Source: an uncultured Gemmatimonadales bacterium
GTDB lineage: Bacteria > Gemmatimonadota > Gemmatimonadetes > Gemmatimonadales > GWC2-71-9
Length of the DNA stretch: 64,000 nucleotides
Reading direction: 5' to 3'
Assembly: GCA_963798915.1 (NCBI GenBank)
Contig: CAWCVB010000001.1
Location: 128,001-192,000 of the forward strand
Shown: one piece after another, positions 15,329-39,644 of the stretch
How positions within the stretch are numbered: the stretch's first letter is position 1
How the letters are laid out: each line of letters starts with the position of its first letter
Translations under genes and position numbers: made by a program
The notes under the pieces: model-generated
The model's input: the letters and a program-made list of their open reading frames with translations, nothing else
Told to the model about the DNA's origin: nothing
Database searches by the model: none

Positions 15329-15506
15329 GGAGTTGGGGGTTAGGGGTTAGCGATTGGCGGTCGTCGGTCTTCAGTCGTCGGTCGTCAGCATGTGGCATCC
15401 CTACTGGATTCCTCGCTGCGCTCGGAATGACACATAGAAGAATCGACGCCTGACGATCGACGACTGACGACAGACGACCGAAGACTCGCGGTTGTCGACC
15501 GTCGAC

Positions 15507-16622
15507 CTAATCCTTCGCCTCCTCCACATCCCGCCGCATCTCCACCTTCACCGGTGCATCATGCGTGAGCGTGAGATGGCCCGAGATGAGCACCGTGTCG
15601 CCGGGCGCCACCGGAATCTCGTTGCTGGCGGAATCCGGCAGGATGACCGTCTCCATGCCGTTGGATCGGCCGGGATTCACATAGGTCCACTTGGCCCGGC
15701 CTTCTTTCACCACGAAGACCAGCGGGCGCCCATCGCGCTCGAGCACGGCGGACGCCGGGACAATGATCTCGTTGGGCAGCCGGCTGCTCTCCAGCCGCAC
15801 GTCGGCGTACATGCCGGGGCGGAGCGGACCGGGGTTGGGGAGACTCACGATCACCTTGCCGGCGCGGGTGGTGCTGTCCACCAGCGGGAGCACGGCGGCG
15901 ATGCGGCCTTCGATGACGCGATCAGGAACTGCCGCCGTCGTGATGCGGGCCCGGCCACCTTGTTTGACCAGCGGGAGATCGTGTTCCAACACACTGGCTT
16001 CGAGCCGCATGCTGGCGAGACTCACCACGGTGGCGAGTTCGTCGCCAGCGGAGACCCGGGTGCCGGCTGCCACCGGCACGGCGTCAATCACGCCGCTGAA
16101 TGGGGCGGTGACGACGGCGCGGTCGCGGTCCAGCTTGGCCTTTTCGAGCTGGACCCGGGCGGCGGCGAGGCCGGAACGCGCCAGCGCATTCTGGCGGCGC
16201 TCCTTGGTCGGCGCCTGTCCTGAGACAATCGAGTCGGGGACGATGTTGTCGGTGTACTGCACCTGGGCCTGCGCCACCGCCGCCTCGGCCGACTGCACGT
16301 CCAGATCGAACGGGCGCGGATCGTACCGCACCAGTGTCTGGCCCTTGGACACGTGCTGGCCCGACTTCACCAGCACATCGGCGATGGTGCCCGGCACCTC
16401 GGCGCGGAGCCTGGCCACGTCGGCGCGGACCTGGCCATTGGTCGCGACGGTGAGGACCAGGTCGCCCTTCCGGACCACATCCCCCACCACCGGGAGCGAG
16501 AGGGTGCTGGCGCTGCGGGTGGCGGTGGAATCCGCCGTCGGACCGTCGGCCGCGCCCTTCTTGCAGGCGGACAGCGGCAGCAGCAGCGCGGCGGAGAGGG
16601 GGAGCAGGTCCCGCAGGGTCAT
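15507..16622 (-). CDS. RND periplasmic adaptor (MFP) lipoprotein
   Basis: Lipobox LSAC, VTAPFSGVI, LRPGMYADV, IVPASAV. Confidence 0.9.
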   Translation of the reverse strand: MTLRDLLPLSAALLLPLSACKKGAADGPTADSTATRSASTLSLPVVGDVVRKGDLVLTVATNGQVRADVARLRAEVPGTIADVLVKSGQHVSKGQTLVRYDPRPFDLDVQSAEAAVAQAQVQYTDNIVPDSIVSGQAPTKERRQNALARSGLAAARVQLEKAKLDRDRAVVTAPFSGVIDAVPVAAGTRVSAGDELATVVSLASMRLEASVLEHDLPLVKQGGRARITTAAVPDRVIEGRIAAVLPLVDSTTRAGKVIVSLPNPGPLRPGMYADVRLESSRLPNEIIVPASAVLERDGRPLVFVVKEGRAKWTYVNPGRSNGMETVILPDSASNEIPVAPGDTVLISGHLTLTHDAPVKVEMRRDVEEAKD

Positions 16623-16697
16623 CGGGGAGTCCGGGAATGGGAACGCGGGTCGCGTCGGGGCAGAGCCATGGCTCTGACCGTACGAGGGTCGAGGGAA

Positions 16698-16860
16698 CCG
16701 AAACTCGCCCATTTGTCATTCCCGCGAACTTCCCGCTTTCGCGGGAATGACGGGGAATCCATGAGGGCTCACCCCAGGTGAGTCGCCCCGCCCGCAATGG
16801 TCGCGGGTCACTCGACCCGAGACCCGAGACCCGAGACCCGAGACCCGAGACCCGAGACCC
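16698..16860. repeat. Composite repeat: CCGAAACTCGCCCA, GTCA-type REP, then about six ACCCGAG units
   Basis: Directly visible; related to elements at 32855 and 40448. Confidence 0.8.
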
Positions 16861-16933: not shown

Positions 16934-17650
16934 TCAGAAGCCTGTCAACTCTGGTTGACCCGCCCCCCCCCCGACGCCCCCCCGAGGGAAGCGCGCTTCG
17001 AGTCGGAGCGCCGCCTCCACCCGCCACTCCCAGCCGACGCGGTGGCTGAACTCGTGGAGGGATACATCCAGACAGGTGCGGACGCGATGCCGCAGAGTTC
17101 GCACATCCATGTCATAGCGCCCGGCCAATCCTTCCGCCGATTCATGCGCGGCCGTTTTTATTTTCGCGAGCTGAATCACCCATTCCCAGTGCCGGGGACT
17201 GAAGTGATTGCCCTGGCTGAAACGGCGACGCACTGAGCGGCGAGACAGCTCATTGCGTCCCTCCGCCACGAGTAGCCGAAGATGGGCCGCCAGCTTTTCC
17301 TGACCCGGGCGAGAGTCCACATAACGAAGCACTTCGGTAGCCGTCGGAGGCCGGCGGTTGCGGATGGCCGAGAGAGGACTCATGCCTGGTTTCAGAAAGA
17401 CGGGCACGCCGGGCAGCGACGAGACGGCGTCATACAGCTTGTCCAGATCCACTCTGGGGGTGTCGTCGGGCTGTTTCACAACGAGGCTGCACCAAGGAGC
17501 GGAGCCACGGACACCGAGCAGCGCCTGAATGCTCGCATGATCTGACCTGAACGGCCACAGTAGGATCGAGCCCAAGGGAGGGTCGGCGTGCCACGGCGAT
17601 TCGTCTAAGTAAGGCGGGACCAATAGCTTGCAGGCGAACAACGGGGGCAT
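16934..17650 (-). CDS. Putative transcriptional regulator with AraC-like double HTH
   Basis: GGAG RBS; C-terminal LSRRSVRRRF...SPRHW...SAEGLAGRYDMDVRTLRHRVR pattern. Confidence 0.5.
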   Translation of the reverse strand: MPPLFACKLLVPPYLDESPWHADPPLGSILLWPFRSDHASIQALLGVRGSAPWCSLVVKQPDDTPRVDLDKLYDAVSSLPGVPVFLKPGMSPLSAIRNRRPPTATEVLRYVDSRPGQEKLAAHLRLLVAEGRNELSRRSVRRRFSQGNHFSPRHWEWVIQLAKIKTAAHESAEGLAGRYDMDVRTLRHRVRTCLDVSLHEFSHRVGWEWRVEAALRLEARFPRGGVGGGAGQPELTGF

Positions 17651-18074
17651 TGCTCACTCCGAGTGCGATCTGGAAGCCTCCATAGTAGGGAACGCCGCAT
17701 CACGGCGATACTGGGTTTTTCCCAATTCCGATAACTTTCCTCGGAATTCGCGATTCCGGGCAGGCGGTCCACAGGCAAGAAACGGCAGGATCTGGCCGGA
17801 GTCGGTATTCCTCGGTGCGATGGCTGCGCATTAAAGTGGATGCGCTTGAAGATTTCTCTGATATGCCTGGCCTTCTTAAGTCAGCGTAGCCACCGCAGGC
17901 ACCGAACTTTGCAACTGTAAGCGTCACCATGTCTAGCATCACCTCGCCCAGCTGCCGCTACGCACTCTCGCAATCTCGCTTGGCGCCGTCGAGTCCGTCA
18001 GGTATCTGCATGACCAATACTCAGCATCACATCCTAGCACAGTGTCGCAGCTTCATCCATCCATCGGTACTACC

Positions 18075-19139
18075 ATGAACCTGTATTCCTCGGCTCACAT
18101 TGTGGCGCTCCTCCTTCCAGTATCGCTGGCTTGTGCCGGTGAACGGAGGCCCGCAGAGACTGCCGCTATCGATAGTCCAATGCAGCCACCAGCCTTCGCA
18201 CTCCACCCGATTGGCACCATCCAGGATGACTCCGCCGGTACTTGGAGAATGGGCAAGCCTCGGGCTGTTCAGATGGCCGGGCGCAACACTCTGCTAATCC
18301 TGGATTCAGACTGGAAGCACATTTTGGTCCACGATGCCGCGACGGGCCGTCTTCTCGGAATGATCGGAAACGGCTATGGCGCTGGCCCTGGCGAATTGGC
18401 CCTTCCCGTGGCAATGGTTGTCAGCGACACTCGCGTATACATCCTTGACTATGAACTTCGAAAGGTCAGTGTGTACAAGTTAACCGGTGCCTTTGTACGC
18501 GACATCTCCATCGCCTCCGTACAGGCTCGGGATTTCATTCTGGACCGTGACTCGCTCGTTGTCCGTCTCATGTCGCCCGATTCATCTGGTGCCCTAGCAC
18601 TTTTTGACCTGCGTGGCGATACAGCCATTAGATATGCACATCCCCTTGGCAGCCATGACCGGCAACTGGCTGAAGCGGGGGCTGGCGGCGTCCTTTTAGA
18701 GGCCAATGGTCAATGGCCTTCCGCATACATAAATGGCGACGGGAGCAGCATCACAAGTACTGATGGGTCGGCCCTGCACGGACCACTTGCAGCTACGACC
18801 AAGCTCCATACAACGACAAACGCTGGCGCAGCCTTACCATGGACGATTCCGGAACGCACAGCAATCAGTGCAACGAGGCTGACCAACGGCTGGCTTGTGA
18901 TCCTTGTGTCAGTAATACCTGTGAGCCGTTTGGTGAGCGCTGATAGCGTTCGCGCTGACTATTACCTCAGCGCCTATGATGCGACTTATCGTCCGCTTGG
19001 CTCTGCGATGCTCCGCTTGAATCGGAGTGACCTTCCAGTAGCCGTCGACGCTGGCGCGGCAGATAACGACCTCTATGTCAGCATCGTGGGACCATCGGGC
19101 CGTGTCGAGCACGTCAAGCTCGACCAGCACGACTACTAA
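18075..19139 (+). CDS. 6-bladed beta-propeller lipoprotein #1
   Basis: Lipobox SLAC; IGNGYGAGPGEL; VYILD; visibly lower GC. Confidence 0.78.
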   Translation: MNLYSSAHIVALLLPVSLACAGERRPAETAAIDSPMQPPAFALHPIGTIQDDSAGTWRMGKPRAVQMAGRNTLLILDSDWKHILVHDAATGRLLGMIGNGYGAGPGELALPVAMVVSDTRVYILDYELRKVSVYKLTGAFVRDISIASVQARDFILDRDSLVVRLMSPDSSGALALFDLRGDTAIRYAHPLGSHDRQLAEAGAGGVLLEANGQWPSAYINGDGSSITSTDGSALHGPLAATTKLHTTTNAGAALPWTIPERTAISATRLTNGWLVILVSVIPVSRLVSADSVRADYYLSAYDATYRPLGSAMLRLNRSDLPVAVDAGAADNDLYVSIVGPSGRVEHVKLDQHDY

Positions 19140-19155
19140 TGTGCATGGAGACCAT

Positions 19156-19689
19156 ATGACCACGGCCCTTAAGTTCGCCGTAATCATGGCGCTCGCCTTT
19201 GTTGGTTGGCTTCTCGGTCGACTGTCCCAAGGCCACACCGCTCGCGAGAGTCCATTGATGCTTGCGGTTGGCGAGACGATACCACCTGTTACGCTTAAAG
19301 GCGACGGCGGGCGCTCGATCGGAATTCGAAGCGCGATGGAGGAAGCGGACTCGAGTGTTTTGCTCATCGTATCATCGACGTGCAGCACCTGCATTGGTGA
19401 GCTTGCTTCATGGAATAGCTGGGCCCGTCAGAGCCCATCGCATCACATCACCGTTCTCGTTTATGCGCCGGACTCCTCATGGATAGGCCGTGCCCGAGCT
19501 ATGGTGAAGCCGGTATTCGATTTGAGACGGATCGCAGACAGGAAGACGGTGGACGCTCTCGGTGCGCACTACTCACCTACGGCATATGTCGTTAACCGAG
19601 ACGCGATCGTTCTTTCAGCGTCGCGAGGCATAGCCGCCACGGCCAGACTTAAGACTCGCCTCATGGGACCTGTCTCGAGGCAACCGTGA
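19156..19689 (+). CDS. Membrane-anchored thioredoxin-like (TlpA-type) CxxC protein
   Basis: N-terminal TM segment, GETIPPVTL, SSTCSTC, cis-Pro motif YSPTAYVVN; GGAG RBS. Confidence 0.75.
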   Translation: MTTALKFAVIMALAFVGWLLGRLSQGHTARESPLMLAVGETIPPVTLKGDGGRSIGIRSAMEEADSSVLLIVSSTCSTCIGELASWNSWARQSPSHHITVLVYAPDSSWIGRARAMVKPVFDLRRIADRKTVDALGAHYSPTAYVVNRDAIVLSASRGIAATARLKTRLMGPVSRQP

Positions 19690-19980
19690 CCTGCGAATCG
19701 CATGTGCTGTTTGAACACACTCTGAGATCTCAATGGACGCACTCCCGTCCGCCCTTTGTGGGCGTTTGCGTCGGACAGCAGCGGATTCGTCGCCATCTGG
19801 GCGCCTGAGACGCATGCCGAGGATGCCTCACCTAGTACCTTGGCGCGCCTTCAGGTCTGGACTATCACTCGCGAGTGCGGGCGGGCAATGCATCGGCGTC
19901 CGAGTATGAGCGATCAGGTACGTATGAAGAGCCCTTGCGTGGGGTCGTTCGCTGTGTCATCTAGAAGGAGGTGAGAGATA

Positions 19981-20226
19981 ATGTCAAATCACGTTTCAAG
20001 CGTGCTTTACCCAGTGCTGGCTACCGCGGTGTTTGTCGTTGCGGCCGCGCTCGGGTCAAGCCGGGCCGCTCAGGCAGCCGAGCAGACGGACTTCTGCCCT
20101 GGCGCAGATTACTGTTACACGGCCGGTGGATGCTCTGCATGCAAGAATACCGCGTGCATCACCGGCGGTAACTGCCCTGATCCAGGCACCCAAGGAAGCA
20201 ACTGTTACGTGTGTGCTGCTCCCTAA
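19981..20226 (+). CDS. Secreted cysteine-rich peptide A (8 Cys)
   Basis: Strong RBS AGAAGGAGGTGA; hydrophobic signal ending AQA; mature part FCPGADYCYTAGGCSACKNTACITGGNCPDPGTQGSNCYVCAAP. Confidence 0.8.
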   Translation: MSNHVSSVLYPVLATAVFVVAAALGSSRAAQAAEQTDFCPGADYCYTAGGCSACKNTACITGGNCPDPGTQGSNCYVCAAP

Positions 20227-20309
20227 GGAACCATGCCGGTTCTAGACGCATGTGATCGATTGCAAAAGTTAACCGCAGGGCAAGTTGACCCACGCAAGGG
20301 AACTCCTGC

Positions 20310-21350
20310 ATGCAAGCGACTTGGTCCATCACAGTCGCCACCGTGTTGGTCGCAGCCTGTTCCTATTCTGAGGACTCTGCCGGCAGCTTGGCGCGGTCCG
20401 AGTTTCCTGCCAGCTGGACGCGCGTCGCAGCATTCGCCGCACCAAGCTCGCTCACATTGGGCGACGTCGGCGCGGCGGCCATTGCAGCGGACGGCACGAC
20501 ATTTATCCTCGATCCGTTCGAAGGCCGGGTGTACATCCGGCCAACGGATGGCGCAATCCGGTCCTTCGGGCGGATGGGCGACGGTCCCGGAGAGTTCCGC
20601 CAGCCGTTCAGGTTGATTGCCTTTGCGCCACATCGCATCGGCGTCGTGGACCGCACCCACGAAAATCTCACCATCTTCACCACGGATTCCGCGCCACCGC
20701 AACTGATCGCGGCGCACTCCTTACCCGCTGCACCGCTCGACTATTGCATCGGCCAGGGCTACGCCGCCGAACTGACGAGTGATCCGGCCAAGAGCATCCT
20801 GCTGCTGGATTCATCCTGGAGCCTAGTCGCTACGGTTGCGCTCAGCTCTGGGGTCGATAGCACGAGGCCGGAGACGCAGGCGACCGCCTTCTTCCGGCGG
20901 CAGGGATTCCTCGTCTGCGCGAGCTCCACGCGGCTCGTCCACGTCTCGCAGTCCGCGGGCCTCGTCAGCCTCGTTGACGTCGCAGCCCATCGTGTCATCG
21001 GCACCGACACGATTCCCGGATTCATTCCCTCGAGACTCTCGATTCGCCCCGGCGGAGTCCGCCTCGATATCGATCCCGAGCGTGGCGTAGCGGATCGCGT
21101 GATCAGCGGGGTCATGCTCTGTCCCGAAGTGGCGGGCTTCATTGTCATGGAGGACCGGCCCCGGCAGGATACCACACCACGACGGGTCTTCATGGCCGCC
21201 TACAATCTGATAACCGGGCACTTCGACAGCCTCCTGGGGGAAACGCCCGAATTCCTGGCGCTCGATCATGGCCTCGCCGTCTCGCGTGTTCGCGATCCGG
21301 AGCCCTCGGCGCAAATCTGGACGGTCGAGTCACACTGCGACGAACGATAG
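20310..21350 (+). CDS. 6-bladed beta-propeller lipoprotein #2
   Basis: Lipobox VAAC; FGRMGDGPGEFR. Confidence 0.8.
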   Translation: MQATWSITVATVLVAACSYSEDSAGSLARSEFPASWTRVAAFAAPSSLTLGDVGAAAIAADGTTFILDPFEGRVYIRPTDGAIRSFGRMGDGPGEFRQPFRLIAFAPHRIGVVDRTHENLTIFTTDSAPPQLIAAHSLPAAPLDYCIGQGYAAELTSDPAKSILLLDSSWSLVATVALSSGVDSTRPETQATAFFRRQGFLVCASSTRLVHVSQSAGLVSLVDVAAHRVIGTDTIPGFIPSRLSIRPGGVRLDIDPERGVADRVISGVMLCPEVAGFIVMEDRPRQDTTPRRVFMAAYNLITGHFDSLLGETPEFLALDHGLAVSRVRDPEPSAQIWTVESHCDER

Positions 21351-23819: not shown

Positions 23820-25030
23820 CGGGCAAGGCGGACAAAGCGGGCAGGACGGGCTGGTTGCTCCTTCTCCTTCTGCTTTTGGTTGCCTGCAGTGAGGAGTCAC
23901 CGGCTGCGCGGACGCGGGTGTTCGACAGCGCTGGCATCACCATCGTCGAGAACAGTGACGCAGCCGAGCCAGCCATTGCCTCAAGGCTGGTAGAATCCCA
24001 CCCCATTCTGCGTATAGGCCAGGAAGACGGACCTGAGGCGTATCGCTTCGATGGCGTGCGAGATATCGCTCGGCTCTCTGACAGCACCATCGTCGTGGCC
24101 GACCGATCCGGCTCGATTCGCTTCTTCGACAAGCGCGGTCAGTTTCTTCGTGCTGTCGGCCGTCACGGTGAGGGGCCCGGCGAATATCGCGTCATCAACT
24201 TCATGCGACGCATTCGGAGCGATTCGCTGCTGGTCTGGGATTTCCCCGCCCGGCGCATCACGATACTCGCGCCTGACGGAACTCTTCAGCGCAGCGAGCC
24301 CGGTCCGGTGACGGAGGGGTTCTTCTATGGCTTGGACGCGTTCGCCGAAGGATCGCTCCTGGGCTCCTATGATGGTCCGCTCACTGGCGCCAGACCTGCG
24401 AATGGCATTCTCCGCACGACTTCGGCCGTGGTCCGGTTCTCGCCCTCGTCAGGCACGATGGATACGCTGGCACTGATCACCATCGGCAGCTCGTATGTGT
24501 CGGGAGGCGAACACTTCAGGATCTCCAGTATGCCCTACCCAGCCGAGGCCATGGCGATCGCGGCCGGACGCTCCGCGTATGTTGGAAGCAGCGAGCGTTT
24601 CGAAATCGCCTTCCGCAATGAGAACGGCCAATTGGTGCGTCTGATCCGCCTCGACCGTGCGCCTGCGGCAATCGATGACTCCACTCGCGAGCGCTACATC
24701 GCCGACCAGCTCTTGCACGCCCGCACTGAGGCCGGTCGGGAGCGGCTGAAGGCACTCTACGCCGAGTTGCCGTTCCCCAAGACCCTGCCCGCGTTTGGCG
24801 CGCTGGCGGTGGATGCTGATTCCAACCTCTGGGTGAGCGCCTACGCGCTCACGGACACGCTCCCGACGCGCTGGACCATCTTCGACCCGGCCGGCCGCAT
24901 CCTCGCCGAAGCCCGGACGCCGGCGCGGTTCAAGGTCTTCGCCATTGCCCGCGAAGATATCATCGGCGTGCGCTCGGACAGCGTGGGGACTGAGCAGGTG
25001 CAGGTGCTGCGGTTGCGGAAAGTCCAATGA
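23816..25030 (+). CDS. 6-bladed beta-propeller lipoprotein #5
   Basis: GTGA coupling to #4; LVAC lipobox; DSAGITIVEN; VGRHGEGPGEYR; WTIFDPAGR. Confidence 0.82.
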   Translation: MTGKADKAGRTGWLLLLLLLLVACSEESPAARTRVFDSAGITIVENSDAAEPAIASRLVESHPILRIGQEDGPEAYRFDGVRDIARLSDSTIVVADRSGSIRFFDKRGQFLRAVGRHGEGPGEYRVINFMRRIRSDSLLVWDFPARRITILAPDGTLQRSEPGPVTEGFFYGLDAFAEGSLLGSYDGPLTGARPANGILRTTSAVVRFSPSSGTMDTLALITIGSSYVSGGEHFRISSMPYPAEAMAIAAGRSAYVGSSERFEIAFRNENGQLVRLIRLDRAPAAIDDSTRERYIADQLLHARTEAGRERLKALYAELPFPKTLPAFGALAVDADSNLWVSAYALTDTLPTRWTIFDPAGRILAEARTPARFKVFAIAREDIIGVRSDSVGTEQVQVLRLRKVQ

Positions 25031-25266
25031 AGCGAGTGGGCAGGATGGACCAGCGTCGCGTCACCCTGCGGGCGCCGACCCCCGCTTTCCCGAAGGGAAC
25101 AGCGGCTATCGGGGCGGGTTCGAGAAGGCGACCGCGCTGCCCCAAACCGTGGCGATTCCGCTACGAATACGGTACCGGCCGCACTTTCGGGGTGATAGAG
25201 GGCTACGGGCTGCAGGCGATCCTGGCGCATGCCCCCTTGCCAACTCCTGCCGCCGAGCCGAGCCTT

Positions 25267-25854
25267 ATGGGTATGCCTGATACAGCTGGACGCGAGACGC
25301 GGGACGCGAGACGCTGGACCCGGGACGCGGTGCTCGCGCTCCCCGACGATGGCCGTCGCTACGAACTCATTGACGGTCAGCTGGTCGTGACGTCGGCGCC
25401 CTCCGGCGGCCACCAGGTGGCCGTCACCACCCTGCTGCTGCGCATCGGGCCTGTCCTGAAGCAGGCAGCCGACACCAGCGCCCGCATCCTGGTGTCCCCG
25501 GCGGACATCAGCCTGGGTGAGGAGGAAATTCTCCAGCCCGACCTGTTCATCTATCTGGCCGAAACCGGGCGACAGCTCACTGAATGGAGCGACATTTCAT
25601 CGCTCCTGGTCGCCATCGAGATCCTGTCGCCTTCGACGGCGCGGTACGACAGAGGACTCAAGCGACTGCGCTACCAGCGCGCGCTCGTGCCGGAATACTG
25701 GATCGTGGATCTGGACGGAAGACTGGTGGAGCGCTGGCGACCGGACGACACGCGGCCGGAGGTGTTGCGCGAGCGATTGCTCTGGGCGTCGGGTGACGGA
25801 GCCGAAGTGGATCTAGACCTGCGGGAATTCTTCAGGGAAGTGGCGGGAACATGA
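25267..25854 (+). CDS. Uma2 family (DUF820) endonuclease-like protein, copy 1
   Basis: LPDDGRRYELIDG, HQ, QPDL, IEILSPST, YQRALVPEYWIVD. Confidence 0.9.
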   Translation: MGMPDTAGRETRDARRWTRDAVLALPDDGRRYELIDGQLVVTSAPSGGHQVAVTTLLLRIGPVLKQAADTSARILVSPADISLGEEEILQPDLFIYLAETGRQLTEWSDISSLLVAIEILSPSTARYDRGLKRLRYQRALVPEYWIVDLDGRLVERWRPDDTRPEVLRERLLWASGDGAEVDLDLREFFREVAGT

Positions 25855-26101
25855 AGGGCAGACGGACAGGGCGCATCTGACGTAGCACATCATTGCGAGG
25901 AGGCGCCGACGGCGCCGACGAAGCAATGACGAATTGGCAAGCTGTCGCCGCAGGCGACGCCTGCCGAGCCACGGTCATCAGCCGCGGGAAACCCGGCACC
26001 AATCCGCCACCGGCCGCGTTTCCTCGATGACAGCGAGCAGTGCGGCGCTGGCGATCCTGAGGCATGCCCCCTTGCCAACTCCCGCCGCCGAGCCGAGCCT
26101 T

Positions 26102-26689
26102 ATGGGTATGCCTGATACAGCTGGACGCGAGACGCGGGACGCGAGACGCTGGACCCGGGACGCGGTGCTCGCGCTCCCCGACGATGGCCGTCGCTACGAG
26201 CTTATTGACGGCGAACTGGTGGTGACGCCGGCGCCCGCTTGGCGGCACCAGGGAGCTGTCACCACGTTATGCGCCGTCCTGAAGCAGGCCTTGGATCGCG
26301 CTCCGGGCACCGTTGCGCGATTGCTGGTCTCCCCGGCGGACATCCAACTTGGTGAAGAAGAGATCCTTCAGCCGGATCTGTTCGTCTACACGATCGCGTC
26401 CGGACCGCGGGCGGAGGATTGGGGTGATATTTCGGGGCTCCTGCTCGTGATTGAAGTCCTCTCGCCCTCCACCGCGCGCTACGACCGGGGCCTGAAGCGG
26501 CTGCGATACCAGCGGGCCCGGGTGCCCGAATACTGGATCGTGGATCTCGACGGCCGCGTCGTGGAACGCTGGCGCCCGGATGATGCGCGGCCGGAGGTAC
26601 TGGCTGATCGGCTGCAGTGGTCGTCGGGCGATGGGGCTGAGGTGAACCTGGATCTGGAGGCGTTCTTCAGGGAAGTGGCGGGAACATGA
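26102..26689 (+). CDS. Uma2 family endonuclease-like protein, copy 2
   Basis: Same motifs; starts 835 bp after copy 1. Confidence 0.9.
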   Translation: MGMPDTAGRETRDARRWTRDAVLALPDDGRRYELIDGELVVTPAPAWRHQGAVTTLCAVLKQALDRAPGTVARLLVSPADIQLGEEEILQPDLFVYTIASGPRAEDWGDISGLLLVIEVLSPSTARYDRGLKRLRYQRARVPEYWIVDLDGRVVERWRPDDARPEVLADRLQWSSGDGAEVNLDLEAFFREVAGT

Positions 26690-26936
26690 AGGGCGGGCGG
26701 ACTAGGCGCATCTGACGTAGCACGTCATTGCGAGGAGGCGCCGACGGCGCCGACGAAGCAATGACGAATTGGCAAGCTGTCGCCGCAGGCGACGCCTGCC
26801 GAGCCACGGTCATCAGCCGCGGGAAACCCGGCACCAATCCGCCACCGGCCGCGTTTTCTCGATGACAGCGAGCAGTGCGGCGCTGGCGATCCTGAGGCAT
26901 GCCCCCTTGCCAACTCCCGCTGCCGAGCCGAGCCTT

Positions 26937-27521
26937 ATGGGTATGCCTGATACAGCTGGACGCGAGACGCGGGACGCGAGACGCTGGACCCGGGACGCGG
27001 TGCTCGCGCTCCCCGACGACGGCCGGCGCCGCGAACTTATTGACGGCGAACTGGTCGTGACGCCGTCGCCGTCCGATTCCCATCAGCGTGCTGTTGGGGA
27101 GCTGTATTTCCTGCTTCGGCTGGCGCTATCGCGAACCCCGGAAACTGCGGCGAGCCTTCTCTTCTCCCCAGCCGATATCAGCCTCGGCGAGGATGAAATC
27201 CTTCAGCCGGACCTCTTCATCTACCGAACCGCCAGCGGACGGATTCGGGAATGGAGCGACATAGCTTCGCTCCTGGTCGCCATCGAGATTCTCTCCCCCT
27301 CCACCGCGCGCTACGATCGCGGCCTCAAGCGGCTGCGCTACCAGCGGGCCCGGGTGCCCGAATACTGGATCGTGGATCTCGACGGCCGCGTCGTGGAACG
27401 CTGGCGCCCGGATGATGCGCGGCCGGAGGTACTGGCTGATCGGCTGCAGTGGTCGTCGGGCGATGGGGCTGAGGTGAACCTGGATCTGGAGGCGTTCTTC
27501 AGGGAAGTGGCGGGAGAGTAG
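26937..27521 (+). CDS. Uma2 family endonuclease-like protein, copy 3
   Basis: Same motifs; starts 835 bp after copy 2. Confidence 0.9.
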   Translation: MGMPDTAGRETRDARRWTRDAVLALPDDGRRRELIDGELVVTPSPSDSHQRAVGELYFLLRLALSRTPETAASLLFSPADISLGEDEILQPDLFIYRTASGRIREWSDIASLLVAIEILSPSTARYDRGLKRLRYQRARVPEYWIVDLDGRVVERWRPDDARPEVLADRLQWSSGDGAEVNLDLEAFFREVAGE

Positions 27522-31518: not shown

Positions 31519-32751
31519 TCAATCCTGCTCGCCCTGCCCGCCTTGCCCGTCCTGCCCGTCCTGTATCACCCATCGCCGTACCTCCGGAAATCCAGTCTCG
31601 TCGGTGGTCGAGAGGTACAGGGTGCCGCCGCTGACAAGCAGCGGATCATATGGCGAGAGCTCGGCCGGCAGGTCCACGGCGCCCAGGTAGCGACCGGCCG
31701 GGCCGAACACGGCGAAGGTCGTATGACCGCCCTGGCTCAGACCCTGGGCCCAGGTGTTCCCGGCATCGTCAGTCATCAGCCGCAAGAAGCTCGGCTCGGT
31801 GGTCGGAACGTCGGCCATGTGAAAGGCATTCCGCAACGTGACCTCGTCGGCCTGGCCACCCTTGATCCGCTCGATCATCTGCTCCACGCGGGCGGTCCGG
31901 ACGCTGTCCGGAAGGGCACCTGGTGTCCAGGTCCGCCGCATGATCAACGTGGTATCATGCCCGGCGCCGGAGCGCATGATGGCGAACTCGGTGCTGGCAC
32001 CGAAGACGAGGCCGCTGTCCGGGCCAAAACCCTCCACCGTCTGTGGCGCGAAGGGGATGCTCACCGCCATGAACCTGCGGCCATTCTTCTCCACCGACCA
32101 GGACTGATCCTCGGTAAGCTGCGGGACCGAAATGGTGTCGAGCAATGTCCCGACCGTGTCGAAGCGGACCTTGTACATGGCCCGCTTGGGCACGCCTTCC
32201 GTCCCCGGACCCCGCACAACGATGAGCGGCAGGACCGCTCTCCAGGCAGCATCCAGTGCTACAGGGCCAAAGTAGTTGCCGACCGAGTGGAAGCTGCGGA
32301 TGAAGGTGCCGCTGGTATCGAATAGCGAGGTCCGCTGTAACTGCGGATCGTGTACCAGCAGCCGGTTGCCGCGGATGGCGATGTAGGCGCTCCGGAACTC
32401 CCCCGGGCCGTCACCTTCATGGCCAATGAGCCGGACGAAGGCGCCGGCGGAATCGAACACCTTGATGTTGACGGGCTTGTCGTCAGCCAGGTAGAGGCGA
32501 TGCTGGGCATCCACCGCGAGACTGCTGGGGTCGATGAGCTCCGCCACGGTGCCCTGCTCCGGCTGAATCGGCGGCAGGTCCGCCAGGCGCCAGCCGCTGG
32601 TGTCGGCCCAGGCTGTCGGACCGCTGCTGGTGACCCGCACGATGCCGCCCGGCAGCGTATCAATGACCGCGGTCGCGAGTCGGGAAGAAGAATCGGCACA
32701 TGCGGCAAGGAGAGCCAAAGCAAGCGGGAGCGTGCAATGTCGGGGACCCAT
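31519..32751 (-). CDS. 6-bladed beta-propeller lipoprotein #9
   Basis: LAAC; IDTLPGGIV; IGHEGDGPGEFR. Confidence 0.82.
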   Translation of the reverse strand: MGPRHCTLPLALALLAACADSSSRLATAVIDTLPGGIVRVTSSGPTAWADTSGWRLADLPPIQPEQGTVAELIDPSSLAVDAQHRLYLADDKPVNIKVFDSAGAFVRLIGHEGDGPGEFRSAYIAIRGNRLLVHDPQLQRTSLFDTSGTFIRSFHSVGNYFGPVALDAAWRAVLPLIVVRGPGTEGVPKRAMYKVRFDTVGTLLDTISVPQLTEDQSWSVEKNGRRFMAVSIPFAPQTVEGFGPDSGLVFGASTEFAIMRSGAGHDTTLIMRRTWTPGALPDSVRTARVEQMIERIKGGQADEVTLRNAFHMADVPTTEPSFLRLMTDDAGNTWAQGLSQGGHTTFAVFGPAGRYLGAVDLPAELSPYDPLLVSGGTLYLSTTDETGFPEVRRWVIQDGQDGQGGQGEQD

Positions 32752-32785: not shown

Positions 32786-32965
32786 GGCAGGATGGGCAGG
32801 ATGGGCAGGATGGGCAGGATGGGCAGGATGGGCAGGATGGGCAGGATGGGCAGGCCGAAGCTCGCCCAATCGTCACCCCGGTGCAAACCGGGGTCCGCGA
32901 GAGGCTCGTGCGGGGCGACTCAGTCGGGGTGAGCCCTCATGGATTTCGCCTTCCGGCGGAATGAC
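32786..32965. repeat. (GGCAGGATG)x7, CCGAAGCTCGCCCA, then a ~94 bp GTCA...TGAC element
   Basis: Element resembles the reverse complement of 40465-40559. Confidence 0.85.
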
Positions 32966-33024: not shown

Positions 33025-34104
33025 CTACGTCTTTCGCCTTCCAACCTCCCTCCACTCACACCCTTCCGCGGAAATCAGGTACCGGTGCACCACCGTCCGC
33101 ACCGGATCACGATCGGCCTCCTGCTCGGTGACCAGCAGGGTATCGCCCTGGAAGCCGGTGAAGGGATGCCCGCCACCGTGCACCGGCACCGCACCATCCA
33201 CGCAGGCATGCTTCCGGTCCGCCGAGAGCAGCGAGAGCCAGGCCACGCTCTGGATGGCGTTGCCGTCCAGCACCTGGTCCATGTGCACCGCGGCGATCTG
33301 GCCGGTGGAGAGGCGATGCAGCTGGAACAGTCCGGACAGCGCCGAGAATCGCTCGGGAAACGGCGTCCCGGGAGCGGCCATCAGGGCGAGACCTCTGTCG
33401 GTGACGCCCTTGCGCCGCGCGACCGGCAGCTCGATCCGTTCGAGCGGTCGGCCGGCGGTGTCGAGCAGCACGATCTCGTTGCTGCCGGAGTAGCCGCCCA
33501 CAATGGTGTCGCCCCATACATCGAGGGCCACGATGGTGAAGATGCCACGGAGCGGCGGGCTCGCCTTGTAGGACGCAGGAAACGGGAAGAGCCTCCGGAA
33601 CGCGGTGTCCCCATCCCACCGGGCGATTCCGGTCTCGCTCCCCTGCTCCACGCCGCCGAACCAGACGGCGTCATTGCGCGCCACCACGTTGCGGAGGATG
33701 CCGGCATAGGGCACCTCGCCAATGCGCGCGCCGCTCGAGTCGAACAGGGTAAGCCGCCGAAGCTGGTCGTCGCCCACGGCAAATCGCCCCTCAGCCAGCG
33801 GCACCGCCTGGGTGGGCCCGCGAAACTCGCCCGGCCCGTCGCCCTTCCGGCCGACCACGTCGAGCCACTGCCCATCGGGAGCGAATCGCACCACCCGCGC
33901 CTGCGCCATGTCGGTTACGAGGTACCGGCCCCCGCCATCTTCCGCCACTCCACCCAGCTGGGCAACATATTCCGCTCCGCTTTCGCTCAGGACCACACTG
34001 TCAACCAGCGAAAGGGCGGGTCCGGTATCCTCGCGCGACCGGGGGGTGTCGCTCCCACACGCTGCAACGCCGAGCCCCAGGCTCACCGCGGCGATGAACC
34101 TCAT
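33025..34104 (-). CDS. 6-bladed beta-propeller lipoprotein #10
   Basis: VAAC; VGRKGDGPGEFR; ATGA-coupled to the upstream peptide gene. Confidence 0.82.
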   Translation of the reverse strand: MRFIAAVSLGLGVAACGSDTPRSREDTGPALSLVDSVVLSESGAEYVAQLGGVAEDGGGRYLVTDMAQARVVRFAPDGQWLDVVGRKGDGPGEFRGPTQAVPLAEGRFAVGDDQLRRLTLFDSSGARIGEVPYAGILRNVVARNDAVWFGGVEQGSETGIARWDGDTAFRRLFPFPASYKASPPLRGIFTIVALDVWGDTIVGGYSGSNEIVLLDTAGRPLERIELPVARRKGVTDRGLALMAAPGTPFPERFSALSGLFQLHRLSTGQIAAVHMDQVLDGNAIQSVAWLSLLSADRKHACVDGAVPVHGGGHPFTGFQGDTLLVTEQEADRDPVRTVVHRYLISAEGCEWREVGRRKT

Positions 34105-34289
34105 CGGGGCATCGGAACGGTCCAGCGCCAACAGGGACAGCGGTAGGTGTCGTTGTTGCAGTCATCCATGCAGTTACCGCTGATATCCCGCCAGTGATAC
34201 TTCCAGGGCACGGCGGTGGTGGCGCGCGCTCCGGACGCAAGCCCCGCAAGCATCAGGACCACGACGGACAGCACCTTGAGATTTGCCAT
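34101..34289 (-). CDS. Secreted cysteine-rich peptide B2 (4 Cys)
   Basis: GAGGAGG RBS; signal peptide; YHWRDISGNCMDDCNNDTYRCPCW; paralog of B1. Confidence 0.8.
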   Translation of the reverse strand: MANLKVLSVVVLMLAGLASGARATTAVPWKYHWRDISGNCMDDCNNDTYRCPCWRWTVPMPR

Positions 34290-34301
34290 GTCCACGCCTC
34301 C

Positions 34302-34514
34302 TCAAACATTGATCCAGAATCCGCCGCCCGATATCGGCCAGCAGGGACACTGGTAGGTGTGACCGCAACTCGACACGCATTTCCCGTCCAGATCCCGCCA
34401 TTGGTAGTAGCCCGCCTCGAACGGAAAGATGTAGATGGGCACGGCGTGGAGCGCCGGCGCGAGCACACTGATGAGCAGGCCCACCAGCAGGAGGCGACGA
34501 CCAAGATTTCGCAT
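34302..34514 (-). CDS. Secreted cysteine-rich peptide B1 (4 Cys)
   Basis: TAATG coupling to the thioredoxin-like gene; signal ending LHA; YQWRDLDGKCVSSCGHTYQCPCW. Confidence 0.8.
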   Translation of the reverse strand: MRNLGRRLLLVGLLISVLAPALHAVPIYIFPFEAGYYQWRDLDGKCVSSCGHTYQCPCWPISGGGFWINV

Positions 34515-34936
34515 TATTTCCTCGCTTGGGGAACGGTGAAGAGCTGCGCGGGACCGGCTTCGCCACTCCAGACCTCGCGGCCGGCGACGAGCAGCACGAC
34601 TCGCATGGTGCGGCCTTCGACCAGCCAGCCCGCCCCGGGCAGCAGGCCATCCACATCGGCACGTCCTGCCCGGAGCTGACGGCGCTCACCCTCGGTTGGC
34701 CTGGCGGTCAGGACCAGGCGAACCTGGCCGGGATGCTGCTTGCGCCAGGCTATCCAGTCGGGCAGGGTGCTGCCACAGGAGAAGCAGCGGGAGGGATTGT
34801 AGAACAGCACCGCAGTGCTTTCCGCGCCAGCCAGCTCGGCCACGCGCCGGCCATCGTCGAGGAGGAGGCGCCCCGCATCAGCGGGACGCCCGCAGGCGGC
34901 AGGGAGAACGGCGAGGAGGAAAAGCAGACGGCGCAT
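34514..34936 (-). CDS. Thioredoxin-like CxxC lipoprotein
   Basis: PAAC lipobox; beta-strand TAVLFY followed by RCFSC, helix, then VRLVL strand. Confidence 0.62.
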   Translation of the reverse strand: MRRLLFLLAVLPAACGRPADAGRLLLDDGRRVAELAGAESTAVLFYNPSRCFSCGSTLPDWIAWRKQHPGQVRLVLTARPTEGERRQLRAGRADVDGLLPGAGWLVEGRTMRVVLLVAGREVWSGEAGPAQLFTVPQARK

Positions 34937-34978: not shown

Positions 34979-36125
34979 TCAGGGTTTGGGGTAGCGCTGC
35001 AGGTACCACAATCCATCGTCATCGGTGCGCGCCGCGTAGATGCCGCGGACACCGACCGCGACCAGGCGGGTCCTGGCCGGGAGCCGGACCTGGCGAAGCA
35101 GGTCGCCGGTCGGGCCGAAGATATCGACCAGTTCGGCCGCGCCCGCTGGCTGGGCACGCTCAACCCAGACCTCGCCTTCCGGCGACGTGATGGCGGTATT
35201 GGGCATGAAGGGCGGCTTGGTCTCGGGCCAGTCCACCTTGGGCGGCTCCGGCGCCACGGGCGGGCGCCCGCCCGATGGACGACTGCCCCCTCCGTCCCTG
35301 GTGTATGCGAAGTGCGCCCCGGTTGTCCTTCTGGCGCTCCTCCAATTCCTTCTTGTCGGCGTCGGTCACGGGCACCGGCGTGTACGAGACCGCAGCACCC
35401 GTCCTCGGTGCGGGCGCGCTCCACTCGGTGTGATACCGGCCGGCGCGCACGAACGCGACCCGGCCGGCATTGGTCACCGCCCAGTCGTCGGACACCGGGA
35501 ATGGCTGCTGCCGCATCATGACCGACCGGTTGCCCGCCGAGCCGGCGGTCGAGACGGCGACGGCAGGGAGCTTTACTTTGCCGATCTCGGTCAGCTGGTC
35601 GGCCTTGCGATCCCAGCGCAGCACCGGCGCGGAATCCGGCAGCGAGCGCGGATCTCCGGGCCCGTCGGCGCCAAAACCCGACCCCTGCACGTAGAGTCGG
35701 CCCATGGCGTCCGCGCCCTTGAAACGTCCGAACCCGGAAAGCCGGTCGGGAAAGGCCACCGTCCCGGTGGGGGTCCCGTCCGGCAAGATCACCAGGAAGC
35801 GGCTCTGGGCCGGGTCCACCACCCAGGTCGTGTCACCAGGCAGGGGCATCAGGCCCATCGGGAAGCCAAATTCCCTGGGCCCCTGTCCTTCCCGCCCGAT
35901 CGCCTTGGCATCGTCGGCCTTGAGGTCAACCAGCGACACGGTCCGCGCAAACACGTCGGCCACCACCAGCCGCCCATCGCTCAGCTCACGGACTGCCGTG
36001 ACCTGGTCGAACGGTTCCGACAACTCGGCATCAGGCCTGGAAAGCTGAACGATGGGAACCTGCTGCGCGCCCGCAGGCAGGACGACGGCAAGGATCAGGC
36101 TGGCCAGCGGGAGGGCACTGCGCAT
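34979..36125 (-). pseudogene. Secreted beta-propeller protein #11 with a +1 frameshift near 35304 (pseudogene or sequencing error)
   Basis: IGREGQGPREF in the N-terminal frame; C-terminal blade (SPEGEVWV...DDDGLWYLQRY) in another frame; removing one base joins them. Confidence 0.7.
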
Positions 36126-36257
36126 CGGCTCGGCTCGCGAAGGAGGTCGGTCAGATGATGCGCGAAGCGGGTCGAGGGTTGCGCGTTGGGAAAAAGGGGC
36201 TCGGGCTTGGGGGTTCGGGCGCACAGCGCACAGCGCACAGCGCACAGCGCACGGCGC

Positions 36258-36446: not shown

Positions 36447-36596
36447 CTCATCCTGCACGGTGTTTGTGTACCTATGAGATGATACGAATGAGCGAATGGT
36501 TGCGTTGTGACAGGACGGGCAGGGCGCGCAGGACGGGCGAGGCGGGCAGGATGGGCAGGATGGGCAGGATGGGCAGAGCGAAGTTCGCCACGCGCT

Positions 36597-36681
36597 GTCA
36601 TTGCGCCGACGAAGCAATCGAGTCGCTTGGATCCAGAAGTTGACCACCCGATTGCTTCGGCCCTTCGGGCCTCGCAATGAC
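36597..36681. repeat. REP-like element GTCATTGCG...GAAGCAATC...GATTGCTTCG...CTCGCAATGAC
   Basis: Inverted repeat; full copy at 43838-43938, partial copies in the Uma2 spacers. Confidence 0.8.
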
Positions 36682-36813
36682 GTACTTGCCATCACCCGCC
36701 CATCCTGCCCATCTCGCCTTTCCCGCCCCGCCCGCCCTGACGAAACCCTTTCCCCCACCCCGGTGTCATATGATCGTGAACGGCGCGCCCGACCTCTTGC
36801 TCCAGGGAGACCG

Positions 36814-37347
36814 GTGGACGAAGCCCAGTTAATCGATCGAGTCCTCGCGAAAGACCCGGTGGCGGAGCGCGCGCTCTATGACGCGCATGTGGACCGCATC
36901 TACCGGCTGGTCTACCGCATGGTGGGCGATGGCGACACCGCGGCCGACTGCGTCCAGGAGACCTTCATCAAGGCCTTCGACCGCCTGGCGGATTTCCGGC
37001 GGGAATCGGCGCTCGGGTCCTGGATCGGCGCGATCGCGGTCTCGGTCGCCCTCAATGCGCTCCGGACCCGGAAGCGGATGGCCGGCCGCCAGGTGCCGAT
37101 CGAGTTCGCGGAGGAGGCGGGCGCCACGTCCCGGCGCGGCGAACCCGACCTCCGATCCGGGATTCACCGGGCCATCAACGCCCTGCCGGACGGCTATCGC
37201 ACCGTCTTCGTGATGCACGATATCGAGGGTTACACCCATGAGGAAATCGGTCAGACCCTCTCGATCAATAGCGGCACATCCAAGGCGCAGCTCTTCCGGG
37301 CTCGCGCCAAACTGCGGAAAGCCCTCGCGGCCCACGCACCGGAGTGA
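36814..37347 (+). CDS. ECF sigma-70 factor
   Basis: DCVQETFIKAF, FRRESALGSW, region 4 LPDGYRTVFVMHDIEGYTHEEIG...GTSKAQLFRAR. Confidence 0.92.
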   Translation: MDEAQLIDRVLAKDPVAERALYDAHVDRIYRLVYRMVGDGDTAADCVQETFIKAFDRLADFRRESALGSWIGAIAVSVALNALRTRKRMAGRQVPIEFAEEAGATSRRGEPDLRSGIHRAINALPDGYRTVFVMHDIEGYTHEEIGQTLSINSGTSKAQLFRARAKLRKALAAHAPE

Positions 37348-37350
37348 TGT

Positions 37351-38094
37351 ATGAGCGATGAATTCCGCAAAGATGAGGAGAAAGAGTCGTCGGTCGTCGG
37401 TCGCCGGTCGTCGAATGACCGAAGACAGACGACTGACGACCTGCTCCATGAGCCCCTCGACGAGACGCTCATGGCCCACGCCCGCGACTACAACAGGCCA
37501 GGCGAAGTGCCGCGTGAGGCCATGTGGGACAGGATACGGGATGGGCGAGATGGGCGGGATGGGCGGGATGGACGGGTGCTGCCGTTCCGACGCGTAGTGC
37601 GGATTGCCCTGCCGATCGCAGCGGTGCTGGCGGTGGGGATCCTGATCGGGCGGATGAGCCAGATGAAAGTCGTCGGTCATCAGTCGTCAGTCATCGCCGA
37701 AGACACGCATCCGTCGACCGAAGACGGACGACCCTCGACGGTCTTCGCGGTCGCCGCTGAACGGCACCTGGCCCAGGCCGAGTCGTTCCTGACGCTGTTC
37801 CGCGCGTCGGCGCGCGAGGGCCGGGACCAATCGCTGGCGCCCGCCACCGCACGCGAGCTGCTGGTGAACAACCGGCTGCTCATGGATTCGCCGGCTGCAA
37901 CCGACCCCAAGGTTGGCCGCCTGCTGGACGACATCGAGCTGGTATTGGCGCAGATCGCCCAGTTGCCGGCCGAAGGCCGGCGGGCCGACGCCCAGATCAT
38001 CACCGACGGTCTCGATGCCGGCGGCATTCTTACCCGGATCCGGTCCGAAGTCCGGCCCGGTCCAGCCGCGGCGCTGCCGCAAGGAGCACTCTGA
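37351..38094 (+). CDS. Putative single-TM anti-sigma factor
   Basis: Follows the ECF gene; PREAMWDRI, one TM helix, LLDDIELVLAQIAQL. Confidence 0.7.
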   Translation: MSDEFRKDEEKESSVVGRRSSNDRRQTTDDLLHEPLDETLMAHARDYNRPGEVPREAMWDRIRDGRDGRDGRDGRVLPFRRVVRIALPIAAVLAVGILIGRMSQMKVVGHQSSVIAEDTHPSTEDGRPSTVFAVAAERHLAQAESFLTLFRASAREGRDQSLAPATARELLVNNRLLMDSPAATDPKVGRLLDDIELVLAQIAQLPAEGRRADAQIITDGLDAGGILTRIRSEVRPGPAAALPQGAL

Positions 38095-39644
38095 TGTCGC
38101 GTTTTGTAATGGCTCTTGCCGGGGTACTACTTCTCGGTGCCGGCGTCCAGGCGCCAGTGGCAGTCGACGGTCAACGGTCAAGAGTCAATGGTCAACGGTC
38201 AACGGTCAACAGTCAACGGTCAACGGTCCACAGTCCACGGTCAACGGTCAACGGTCAACGGACAACCGTCATCGGACAACCGTCGACCGTCGACCGTCGG
38301 CCCTCGACCATTGTCCCTGCCCCCTGGCTCACCGCCGACCCCGCCGACTCGCTCTACCGGGCAGCGCGTGAGGCGCTCAACCACAACCGCTACCGCGAGG
38401 CGTTGGACACTTTCCGCGAACTCGAGCGCCGCTATCCCAGGTCGGGCTACGTCGCCGACGGGCTCTACTGGCAGGCGTTTGCGCTCTACCGTCTCGGCGG
38501 CCGAGCCAACCTGCAGAGGGCGCGGTCACAGCTGGATGAACAGAAGAACCGGTTCCCCGCAGCCGCGACCCGGGGCGACGCCGACGCGCTCGCCGTACGG
38601 ATCAGCTCCGCGCTGGTGCAGTATGGCGACGCCTCGGCGGACGAGGCGCTGTACAACGAGGCCCGGCTCGCGCAGACAGCGCCGCCGGCGCCACCCAGAG
38701 CGCCTCACATGCCGCCTTCAATCCCAGCTGCCAGGCTGGCGCCGGCACCCGGCATGGGCGACGACGACTGCGGCTCTGGTGACGATGCCAAGGCCATGGC
38801 CCTGCAGGGCATCATGCGGAACAACCCGGAGCGGGCTGTGCCCATCCTGGAGAAGGTGCTGGCCCGTCGTGACCCCGAGTCGGTCTGCCTCCGCCGGCAT
38901 GCACTATTCGTCCTGGCCTCCAGCAACAATCCGGCGGGCAGCAGGCTGCTGCTGCAGGCAGTGTCGAGCGATCCCGACAAGGAGGTACGGGAAGGCGCGG
39001 TGTTCTGGCTGGCGCAGACCCACGACCCGAAGGCCGTCGCGCTGCTCGACTCGGTACTCAAGGCATCGACGGACGAGGATGTGCAGCAGGCAGCGATGTT
39101 CGCGCTGAGCACCAAGAGGGATCCGGAGGCCCGGCGGGTCATGAAGAGTTACCTCAACAAGCCCGGTGTGTCGCCGGACGTGGCCGGAATGGCGCTGTTT
39201 CAGCTGGCGCGGGATCCGGAGACCACACCCGCCGAGCTGAAGCAGTACTACGCCAACGCCAGCAGCACCGAGATGAAGTCGCAGGTCCTGGTGGCGATGA
39301 TGACCCGGCGTGACAAGGACACCGACTGGTTGATGTCCATTGCCACCAACAAGAATGAGGACCACGAGCTTCGGCAGCAGGCGCTCATGGCCATGGTGCA
39401 GAGTGGCATGCCCACGGCCGAGCTGCTCAAGGTGTTCGATGCCATCCCGCCGGATGACGAGATGCAGGGCATGATGATGATGCTGATGGCGCAGCGGCCC
39501 AACGATCCGGCCATCGTGGACCGGCTCATGTCCATCGCCCGCTCGTCGAAGAACAAGGAGATGCAGCAGCAGGCCATCTTCTGGCTGAGCCAGTCGAAGG
39601 ACCCGCGTGCGACCAAGCTGCTCGAGGAGATCCTGGAACAATGA
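38094..39644 (+). CDS. Secreted TPR-like/HEAT-repeat protein
   Basis: ADSLYRAAREAL, YPRSGYVADGLYW, repeated A(V/I)FWL HEAT units. Confidence 0.82.
   Translation: MSRFVMALAGVLLLGAGVQAPVAVDGQRSRVNGQRSTVNSQRSTVHSPRSTVNGQRTTVIGQPSTVDRRPSTIVPAPWLTADPADSLYRAAREALNHNRYREALDTFRELERRYPRSGYVADGLYWQAFALYRLGGRANLQRARSQLDEQKNRFPAAATRGDADALAVRISSALVQYGDASADEALYNEARLAQTAPPAPPRAPHMPPSIPAARLAPAPGMGDDDCGSGDDAKAMALQGIMRNNPERAVPILEKVLARRDPESVCLRRHALFVLASSNNPAGSRLLLQAVSSDPDKEVREGAVFWLAQTHDPKAVALLDSVLKASTDEDVQQAAMFALSTKRDPEARRVMKSYLNKPGVSPDVAGMALFQLARDPETTPAELKQYYANASSTEMKSQVLVAMMTRRDKDTDWLMSIATNKNEDHELRQQALMAMVQSGMPTAELLKVFDAIPPDDEMQGMMMMLMAQRPNDPAIVDRLMSIARSSKNKEMQQQAIFWLSQSKDPRATKLLEEILEQ

Follow-up and report, generated by a model that had tools for sequence, protein, structure and literature searches.

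Here we describe two neighboring genes, B1 and B2, in a 64,000-nucleotide stretch (the window) of the genome of an uncultured soil bacterium of the Gemmatimonadales (assembly GCA_963798915.1, contig CAWCVB010000001.1, positions 128,001 to 192,000). They encode two paralogous, cysteine-containing peptides of a new family, and they lie between the genes of a CxxC lipoprotein and a propeller lipoprotein. We favor, at slightly better than even confidence, the reading of the locus as a dedicated cassette for folding peptides outside the cytoplasm, with B1 and B2 as its cargo and a disulfide-bonded pair of peptides as its product. Two observations speak for it: the same CxxC and propeller helpers are found beside several unrelated peptide families, and start and stop codons overlap from the CxxC gene to B1 and from B2 to the propeller gene, an arrangement that reads as translational coupling. 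The first-pass annotation of this DNA, made from the letters alone, overlooked this context: the CxxC lipoprotein and the propeller are the constant partners, and B1/B2 is one of several peptide families.

At the gene level, that annotation had proposed two paralogous Trp/Cys mini-peptides, and both open reading frames (ORFs) were confirmed. B1 (34302..34514, minus strand) starts with ATG and encodes a precursor of 70 amino acids (aa), with a signal-peptide-like N-terminus of about 24 aa and an aromatic-rich mature part of 46 aa that carries W-R-D-L-D-G-K-C-x3-C-x5-C-P-C-W. B2 (34101..34289, minus strand) is the shorter paralogue, with an ATG start, a 62-aa precursor and C-x3-C-x6-C-P-C. In a single BLASTP comparison, the two were identical at 23 of 60 positions (38%, E 1e-10). 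The C-x3-C-x5/6-C-P-C pattern exceeds chance: translating the window in all six frames yields two occurrences, against none in each of 20 shuffles. For B2, the ORF list gives an alternative GTG start at 34295; we set the start at the ATG because it follows a GAGGAGG ribosome-binding site with a 7-nucleotide (nt) spacer and agrees with a 62-aa database entry (P0002).

All three couplings described at first pass can be read directly from the DNA. The TAATG at 34516..34512 joins the TAA stop of the CxxC gene to the ATG of B1, the GAGGAGG of B2 (34297..34303, minus strand) overlaps the TGA stop of B1, and the ATGA at 34104..34101 joins the TGA of B2 to the ATG of the propeller gene. By inspection, both N-termini are signal-peptide-like, with basic residues, a hydrophobic run and small residues before V-P. 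Paired arginines (R-R-L...) are common in these signal peptides (34443-34514 in B1, 34221-34289 in B2) and in those of their orthologues, and an arginine near the cleavage site is frequent in B2-type ones. Judged from these residues, a twin-arginine translocation (Tat) route for B1/B2-type precursors is conceivable.

B1 and B2 are real genes. The first-pass annotation had argued this from conserved residues over diverged DNA; the genes stand, and the DNA argument is weak because the 23-residue core, which begins with Y-x-W-R-D and ends with C-P-C-W, is identical at 47 of 69 nt, and the codon is the same for 10 of the 13 residues that B1 and B2 share there. Their coding status rests on orthologues that are conserved with a ratio of nonsynonymous to synonymous substitution rates (dN/dS) below 1. 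Many spurious ORFs arise in GC-rich DNA, and B1 and B2 could in principle be chance open frames of this kind. We give this explanation practically no credence: the frame and the cysteines are kept in orthologues, dN/dS is below 1, and a ribosome-binding site and start/stop overlaps are present, so that the conservation data refute it.

We calculated dN/dS between the window and three syntenic loci from metagenome-assembled genomes (MAGs), L006-L008, and the ratios are rough since dS was 0.5-1.1, near saturation. They were 0.31-0.36 for whole B1 (0.17-0.19 for the mature part and 0.64-1.1 for the signal part), 0.67-0.68 for B2, 0.11-0.13 for the CxxC protein and 0.18-0.27 for the propeller. The mature part of B1 is under purifying selection, and B2 is evolving faster. 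B2 shared 42-45% identity with its syntenic orthologues versus 76-84% for the neighboring genes, and there are at least two B2 subtypes among otherwise syntenic loci.

As in the first-pass annotation, which recognized no named family, we found none in Pfam, NCBIfam, PDB sequences or PDB folds. B1 and B2 matched no Pfam or NCBIfam family at E <= 1, and the Pfam scan gave no NVEALA-type match. The peptide profile retrieved nothing relevant from the PDB sequences, and the ESM Atlas gave no usable match. An AlphaFold2 (AF2) model of B1, with a predicted local distance difference test (pLDDT) of 76, displayed a small all-beta fold behind the signal helix; against PDB folds, Foldseek gave no match at E <= 0.001 and a wide VIA-align search reached a best Z of 2.3.

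Homologues with the conserved cysteine spacing, the check proposed at first pass, were found by two sequence searches and in the set of loci. A word-indexed search retrieved 10 further metagenomic proteins (57-73 aa), all B1-like with 51-64% identity, and an exhaustive search of 1.84 billion representatives retrieved 47 proteins at E <= 1e-3. Twelve of these 47 were short (56-75 aa) and represent the family, with B1-like, B2-like and two distant members. The remaining 35 were long (396-5934 aa) and covered only about 20 profile positions. We considered them as a fused form of the family and rejected this, as all four of the 35 that were scanned were SdrD_B repeat proteins. B1 itself gave no match to SdrD_B (PF17210, the full 112-residue B domain), and the likeness is at the level of a motif (G-x-Y-x-W-x-D-x-D-G). 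Among 20 family members, W39, D41, C46, C50, C56, P57 and C58 (B1 numbering) were invariant and G44 nearly so. The family is small but genuine, and its four cysteines and one W, D and P are invariant.

The family appears to be rare, with short proteins from Gemmatimonadales and metagenomes only. With each species represented by one genome, a pattern scan detected four loci, all titled Gemmatimonadales MAGs, and a metagenome scan added two more. When 401 genomes of the order were scanned with a profile, three had the family, the window's genome included; this may be an undercount since the scan scored only 14 candidates in each genome. The window's own genome has no copies besides B1 and B2. 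In the literature that we searched, there was no description of a gene set with the peptide pair, the CxxC protein and the propeller, no paper on NVEALA, DUF5128 (PF17170) or BF3164 beyond one unrelated mention, and, in the papers listed, no occurrence of DUF4934, DUF4221, PF17170 or PF14055.

The two copies form a fixed pair. The 15 locus identifiers correspond to 11 distinct loci (four identifiers are the same contigs twice), and each of the 11 holds exactly two family members, the B1-like copy first in the direction of transcription and the B2-type copy always proximal to the propeller gene. The pair always has as neighbors a CxxC lipoprotein and a propeller lipoprotein of the NHL/DUF5128 type. 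In G157 the order differs (peptide, CxxC, peptide, propeller), so the four genes stay together even when shuffled. In a maximum-likelihood tree of 22 cores, the 10 "second" copies outside G157 formed one group with a support of 86/72, which is not strong, and the G157 pair sat on a long branch of unresolved placement. The first/second label changed twice on this tree, compared to a mean of 7.6 in shuffled labels, and none of 500 shuffles was as low. The first-pass suggestion that the paralogues work as a pair is in line with these results: two members in the same order at every distinct locus, and copies that largely separate on the tree.

Cysteine counts point in the same direction. They were 4+4 in nine loci and 5+5 in two (G369 and G519), and mixed in none. 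G369 and G519 are close relatives and count as one lineage, so that the odd cysteine in both partners, which would fit an intermolecular disulfide, is suggestive for a single lineage. Each peptide probably has two disulfides, and B1 and B2 would pair physically.

The CxxC lipoprotein (C-F-S-C; 34514..34936, minus strand; 140 aa) is encoded upstream of B1, whose start its stop overlaps. It had no match in Pfam or NCBIfam, none of 24 members of its family matched the thioredoxin-type Pfam models, and its profile found nothing below E 0.2 among PDB sequences. In a set of 5.8 billion proteins, the profile retrieved only 16 small proteins, unannotated or doubtfully named. An AF2 model from a 24-row alignment (pLDDT 86.9, predicted TM-score 0.81) had ResA, StoA, FetE, TlpA and DsbE as best Foldseek matches (E 3e-4 to 3e-3, TM-score about 0.5). 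Ten PDB matches reached E <= 1e-3, nearly all of the ResA/StoA type (eight were ResA entries). In the family alignment, the two cysteines are the only invariant columns. Therefore, the model predicts a ResA/TlpA-like thioredoxin fold, with the CxxC at the start of helix 1.

The propeller lipoprotein (33025..34104, minus strand), whose start overlaps the stop of B2, is of the six-bladed NHL/DUF5128 type, with two conserved cysteines near its C-terminus. It scored 19.5-19.7 bits against PF17170, below the gathering cut-off of 22.9, and neighboring propeller paralogues scored above it (24.6-36.6 bits); 15 of 18 cassette propellers matched PF17170 at E <= 0.01. When PDB sequences were searched with an 18-row propeller profile, NHL domains matched with E values from 1e-40 to 1e-4, namely those of Thin and TRIM71 (both within E 1e-40 to 1e-36), TRIM2, Brat, PknD, PAL (peptidyl-alpha-hydroxyglycine lyase; 3fvz, E 4.6e-17) and, weakly, SOQ1 (7djl, E 1.3e-4). 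These matches argue for a six-bladed NHL-type propeller in the cassette. PAL has conserved zinc-binding histidines, and we considered PAL-like catalysis and rejected it: the 18-row alignment has no invariant or nearly invariant histidine, which makes a PAL-like zinc site unlikely.

The window's genome encodes 14 propeller paralogues, and this number is one reason to consider B1 and B2 as permanent periplasmic small subunits or regulatory ligands of the propellers, with a MauD-like role for the CxxC protein. B2 is apparently coupled in translation to the propeller; peptide, thioredoxin-like and propeller genes always occur together; and the invariant W, D and cysteines are residue types that occur in Trp/Cys-derived cofactors. 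The mau cluster, for methylamine dehydrogenase, encodes a propeller heavy subunit, a small disulfide-rich light subunit that sits on it and the thioredoxin-like MauD, and the present genes resemble it in kind only, as a propeller, a thioredoxin-like protein and a small exported protein with Cys and Trp. However, the propeller here is six-bladed and of the NHL type instead of seven-bladed, it has no conserved histidine or metal site, and the peptides are much smaller and variable. Two peptides would also have to serve 14 propellers, and there is no MauE (PF07291) in the locus, with two weak matches on contig C2 (MauG was not searched). Moreover, peptide families with differing cysteine patterns interchange between cassettes, a behavior more in keeping with cargo than with a conserved carrier of a cofactor. 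We consider this explanation unlikely.

Among 401 genomes of the taxonomic family, the CxxC profile matched at 33 places, which belong to 22 of the genomes. In a sample of 401 genomes from the whole phylum it matched in 38, and these represent four of the 12 families sampled. A propeller gene adjoins the CxxC gene in all 29 fetched loci (33025-type in 27, the other two being contig fragments) and in all six loci from other families. To detect small peptides we used a crude filter (signal-like N-terminus and cysteines in the tail). In its strict form it found small Cys ORFs beside the CxxC gene in 21 of 29 loci; a looser form with longer flanks found them at three more loci and at two of three additional places. 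Counting the window, small secreted Cys ORFs were present at about 27 of 33 places, and at four of the six loci from other families.

These cassette peptides have at least four unrelated cysteine patterns, with 4, 5, 6 or 8 cysteines, nearly always an even number. B1 and B2 belong to the commonest of these patterns, a broad W...C-x3-C...C-x-C group, and many of the cassette peptides end in a proline-containing hydrophobic tail. Such variation bears on another explanation, that B1 and B2 are periplasmic metal-binding peptides (for copper, for example) that use C-x3-C and C-P-C and are served by a Sco/TlpA-like protein. These motifs resemble metal sites, and complexes of TlpA with ScoI and CoxB were among the fold matches of the CxxC model. 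However, cysteine numbers and spacings that vary freely between cassettes and are nearly always even suit structural disulfides and not a conserved metal site, and the peptides have no conserved His or Met. We therefore hold a metal-binding function to be very unlikely.

The window's genome has three cassettes with three peptide families. The second is on contig C4 (L020, 3730-5973, minus strand), in a stretch of lower GC, and encodes a pair of secreted paralogues with six cysteines each (C-x-Q-x-W-D...C-Y-C-T-W), followed by a full-length propeller of the 33025 type and a lipoprotein with C-L-F-C. The third is in the window itself (18042-21350, plus strand), with a GC content of 0.56-0.58 versus 0.65-0.70 elsewhere. 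It contains, all on the plus strand, two propellers (18042-19139 and 20310-21350), a membrane-anchored C-S-T-C thioredoxin-like ORF with a weak match to the CxxC protein (19075-19689) and a secreted peptide of 81 aa with eight cysteines (19981-20226).

Two further observations concern the surroundings of other cassettes. In G157, contig C22 (L058, about 5000-5540, plus strand) has a signal-like stretch followed by E-G-D-W-R-I-R-D-D-G, with no cysteine core. This stretch precedes another CxxC gene in the same reading frame and may be a decayed or frameshifted peptide gene. ORFs resembling helix-turn-helix (HTH) regulators adjoin three other cassettes (window 16934-17650, minus strand; L020 6265-7047, plus strand; L016 8308-8856, plus strand), and only the window's ORF has a Pfam match (HTH_18, weak, E 0.0067, below the cut-off).

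If B1 and B2 are the cargo of a folding cassette, we infer the export route, disulfide formation by the CxxC protein, propeller binding, the heterodimer and the end use as follows. The precursors would cross the inner membrane via their N-terminal signal peptides and would be cut just before V-P. The thioredoxin-fold lipoprotein would then act on the four invariant cysteines and form or shuffle two disulfides per peptide. The NHL propeller lipoprotein could bind the ends of the peptides, which are aromatic and contain proline, and serve as their platform or holder. Together, the two lipoproteins would be an unfused counterpart of the thioredoxin-plus-NHL arrangement of NHLRC2 and SOQ1. The finished product would be a B1-B2 pair, most likely a heterodimer.

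Several points weigh against this proposal. Peptides were not found at about six of the 33 places with the CxxC-propeller pair (two of them contig ends), and only one peptide seems to be present in more distant cassettes, so that pairing does not hold for the cassette in general. A VKOR homologue is encoded in the genome, and general disulfide formation may already exist; by the same token, a re-oxidation route exists, and no DsbB was found in the assembly, which is 84.8% complete. ResA/TlpA-type proteins are usually reductants, so the redox step here could run in either direction. The cassette has no evident outer-membrane route, and C39 (PF03412) gave no match in the genome at this completeness. 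The mature peptides are roughly neutral, and many bacteriocins are cationic. A complex prediction of the propeller with B1 and B2 (each as an alignment, B2 as partner), run without controls, gave a score of 0.14 and a mark of 0.32 and speaks neither for nor against the proposal.

Regarding the end use, our guess places a bacteriocin-like competition peptide first, followed by a ligand or small subunit of the propellers, a signal read by an extracytoplasmic function (ECF) sigma factor and, last, metal binding. The bacteriocin-like use is a tentative leading guess, ranked first because of the hypervariable cargo, the several cassettes per genome, the fast B2 and the precedent of the bacteroidetocins; a use as propeller ligand or subunit is doubtful, and one as a signal is improbable.

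The bacteroidetocins, class IIf bacteriocins from Bacteroidales, are exported four-cysteine peptides about 42 aa long; a thiol oxidoreductase gene adjoins the peptide gene in their loci, and deleting it attenuates toxin activity (PMC6671954). The likeness lies in a small Cys-containing exported peptide and an adjoining gene, here for a predicted thiol oxidoreductase. In contrast, bacteroidetocins have a double-glycine leader, an ATP-binding cassette (ABC) exporter with a C39 peptidase and a five-transmembrane protein, whereas the N-termini of B1 and B2 are signal-peptide-like with no double-glycine leader and no C39 domain was found in the genome. No ABC gene was seen among the neighbors scanned. 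Besides, a propeller lipoprotein is the constant third partner here, and there is no sequence similarity to bacteroidetocins. Maturases of ribosomally synthesized and post-translationally modified peptides (radical SAM, YcaO, lanthionine or similar) were absent among the ORFs scanned around the cassette.

NHLRC2 and SOQ1 likewise combine a TlpA-like thioredoxin fold and a six-bladed NHL propeller outside the cytoplasm or in a lumen. In both proteins the two parts are fused, whereas here they are separate lipoprotein genes with B1 and B2 between them, and small Cys-rich peptide genes accompany them. The likeness of the CxxC protein to the thioredoxin part of NHLRC2 and SOQ1 is one of domain make-up, by analogy.

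In the surroundings of B1 and B2, a second propeller gene (35160..36125, minus strand) lies upstream of the CxxC gene. Its start is at a GTG at 36245 in the ORF list, whereas alignments with orthologues cover it from the Met at 36125 onward. This 35160-type propeller is syntenic in L006-L009 (62-72% identity) and also in L028 and L073. Beyond it, and divergent, are an ECF sigma factor gene (36601-37347, plus strand; Pfam Sigma70_r2 and r4_2; start uncertain) and a putative anti-sigma gene (37351-38094, plus strand; no Pfam match), syntenic in L006-L009.

This pair could read the level of B1 and B2 if the peptides were secreted signals, and it keeps synteny with the B1/B2 locus in all four related MAG contigs; B2 diverges fast between close relatives, as pheromone alleles can. 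However, no ECF pair adjoins the other cassettes that were examined in detail (G157 and C4), and the anti-sigma gene, with no Pfam match, presents no receptor-like domain. We regard this explanation as quite improbable.

Other features of the window were observed on their own account. Two AcrB-type resistance-nodulation-division (RND) transporter genes and a HlyD-type membrane-fusion gene (9168-16712, minus strand) adjoin the propeller array, 17 kb from the B1/B2 cassette. Three tandem Uma2-family (PF05685) genes (25027-27521, plus strand) each contain an array of the 7-nt repeat GGACGCG; the arrays (25288, 26123 and 26958) occupy equivalent positions in the three genes and are spaced 835 bp apart. 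GC-rich tandem repeats of 7-9 nt lie at 31524-31563, 32786-32854, 36511-36576, 37537-37576 and 38163-38298, either in the gaps that separate propeller, sigma-factor and HEAT-repeat genes or where these genes start; they include GGCAGGATG x7.7 (100% matches) and GTCAACG x17.

Gemmatimonadota are abundant soil bacteria for which, to our knowledge, almost no secreted products have been characterized. The rare peptide family described here is encoded with a clear genetic logic, in which a single thioredoxin-fold lipoprotein and a single propeller accompany two peptides. Should these helpers prove to fold and hold their peptides, the cassette would be a compact extracytoplasmic system for disulfide-rich peptides and a source of new scaffolds. 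We know of no clients of NHLRC2, and SOQ1 acts on a lipocalin pathway; the cassette, if correctly read, would offer a possible hint at the role of the thioredoxin-plus-NHL arrangement in both.

A broader reading, which we put forward as speculative, extends beyond the phylum to the superphylum to which both Gemmatimonadota and Bacteroidota belong. It would be an undescribed peptide-production system, widespread in that superphylum, with hypervariable, signal-peptide-bearing Cys-rich peptides, an unfused NHLRC2/SOQ1-like maturation pair and, in the case of B1 and B2, an obligate disulfide-stabilized heterodimer. If this were true, these peptides would be the first defined clients for a thioredoxin-plus-NHL module and a new class of secreted-peptide scaffolds.

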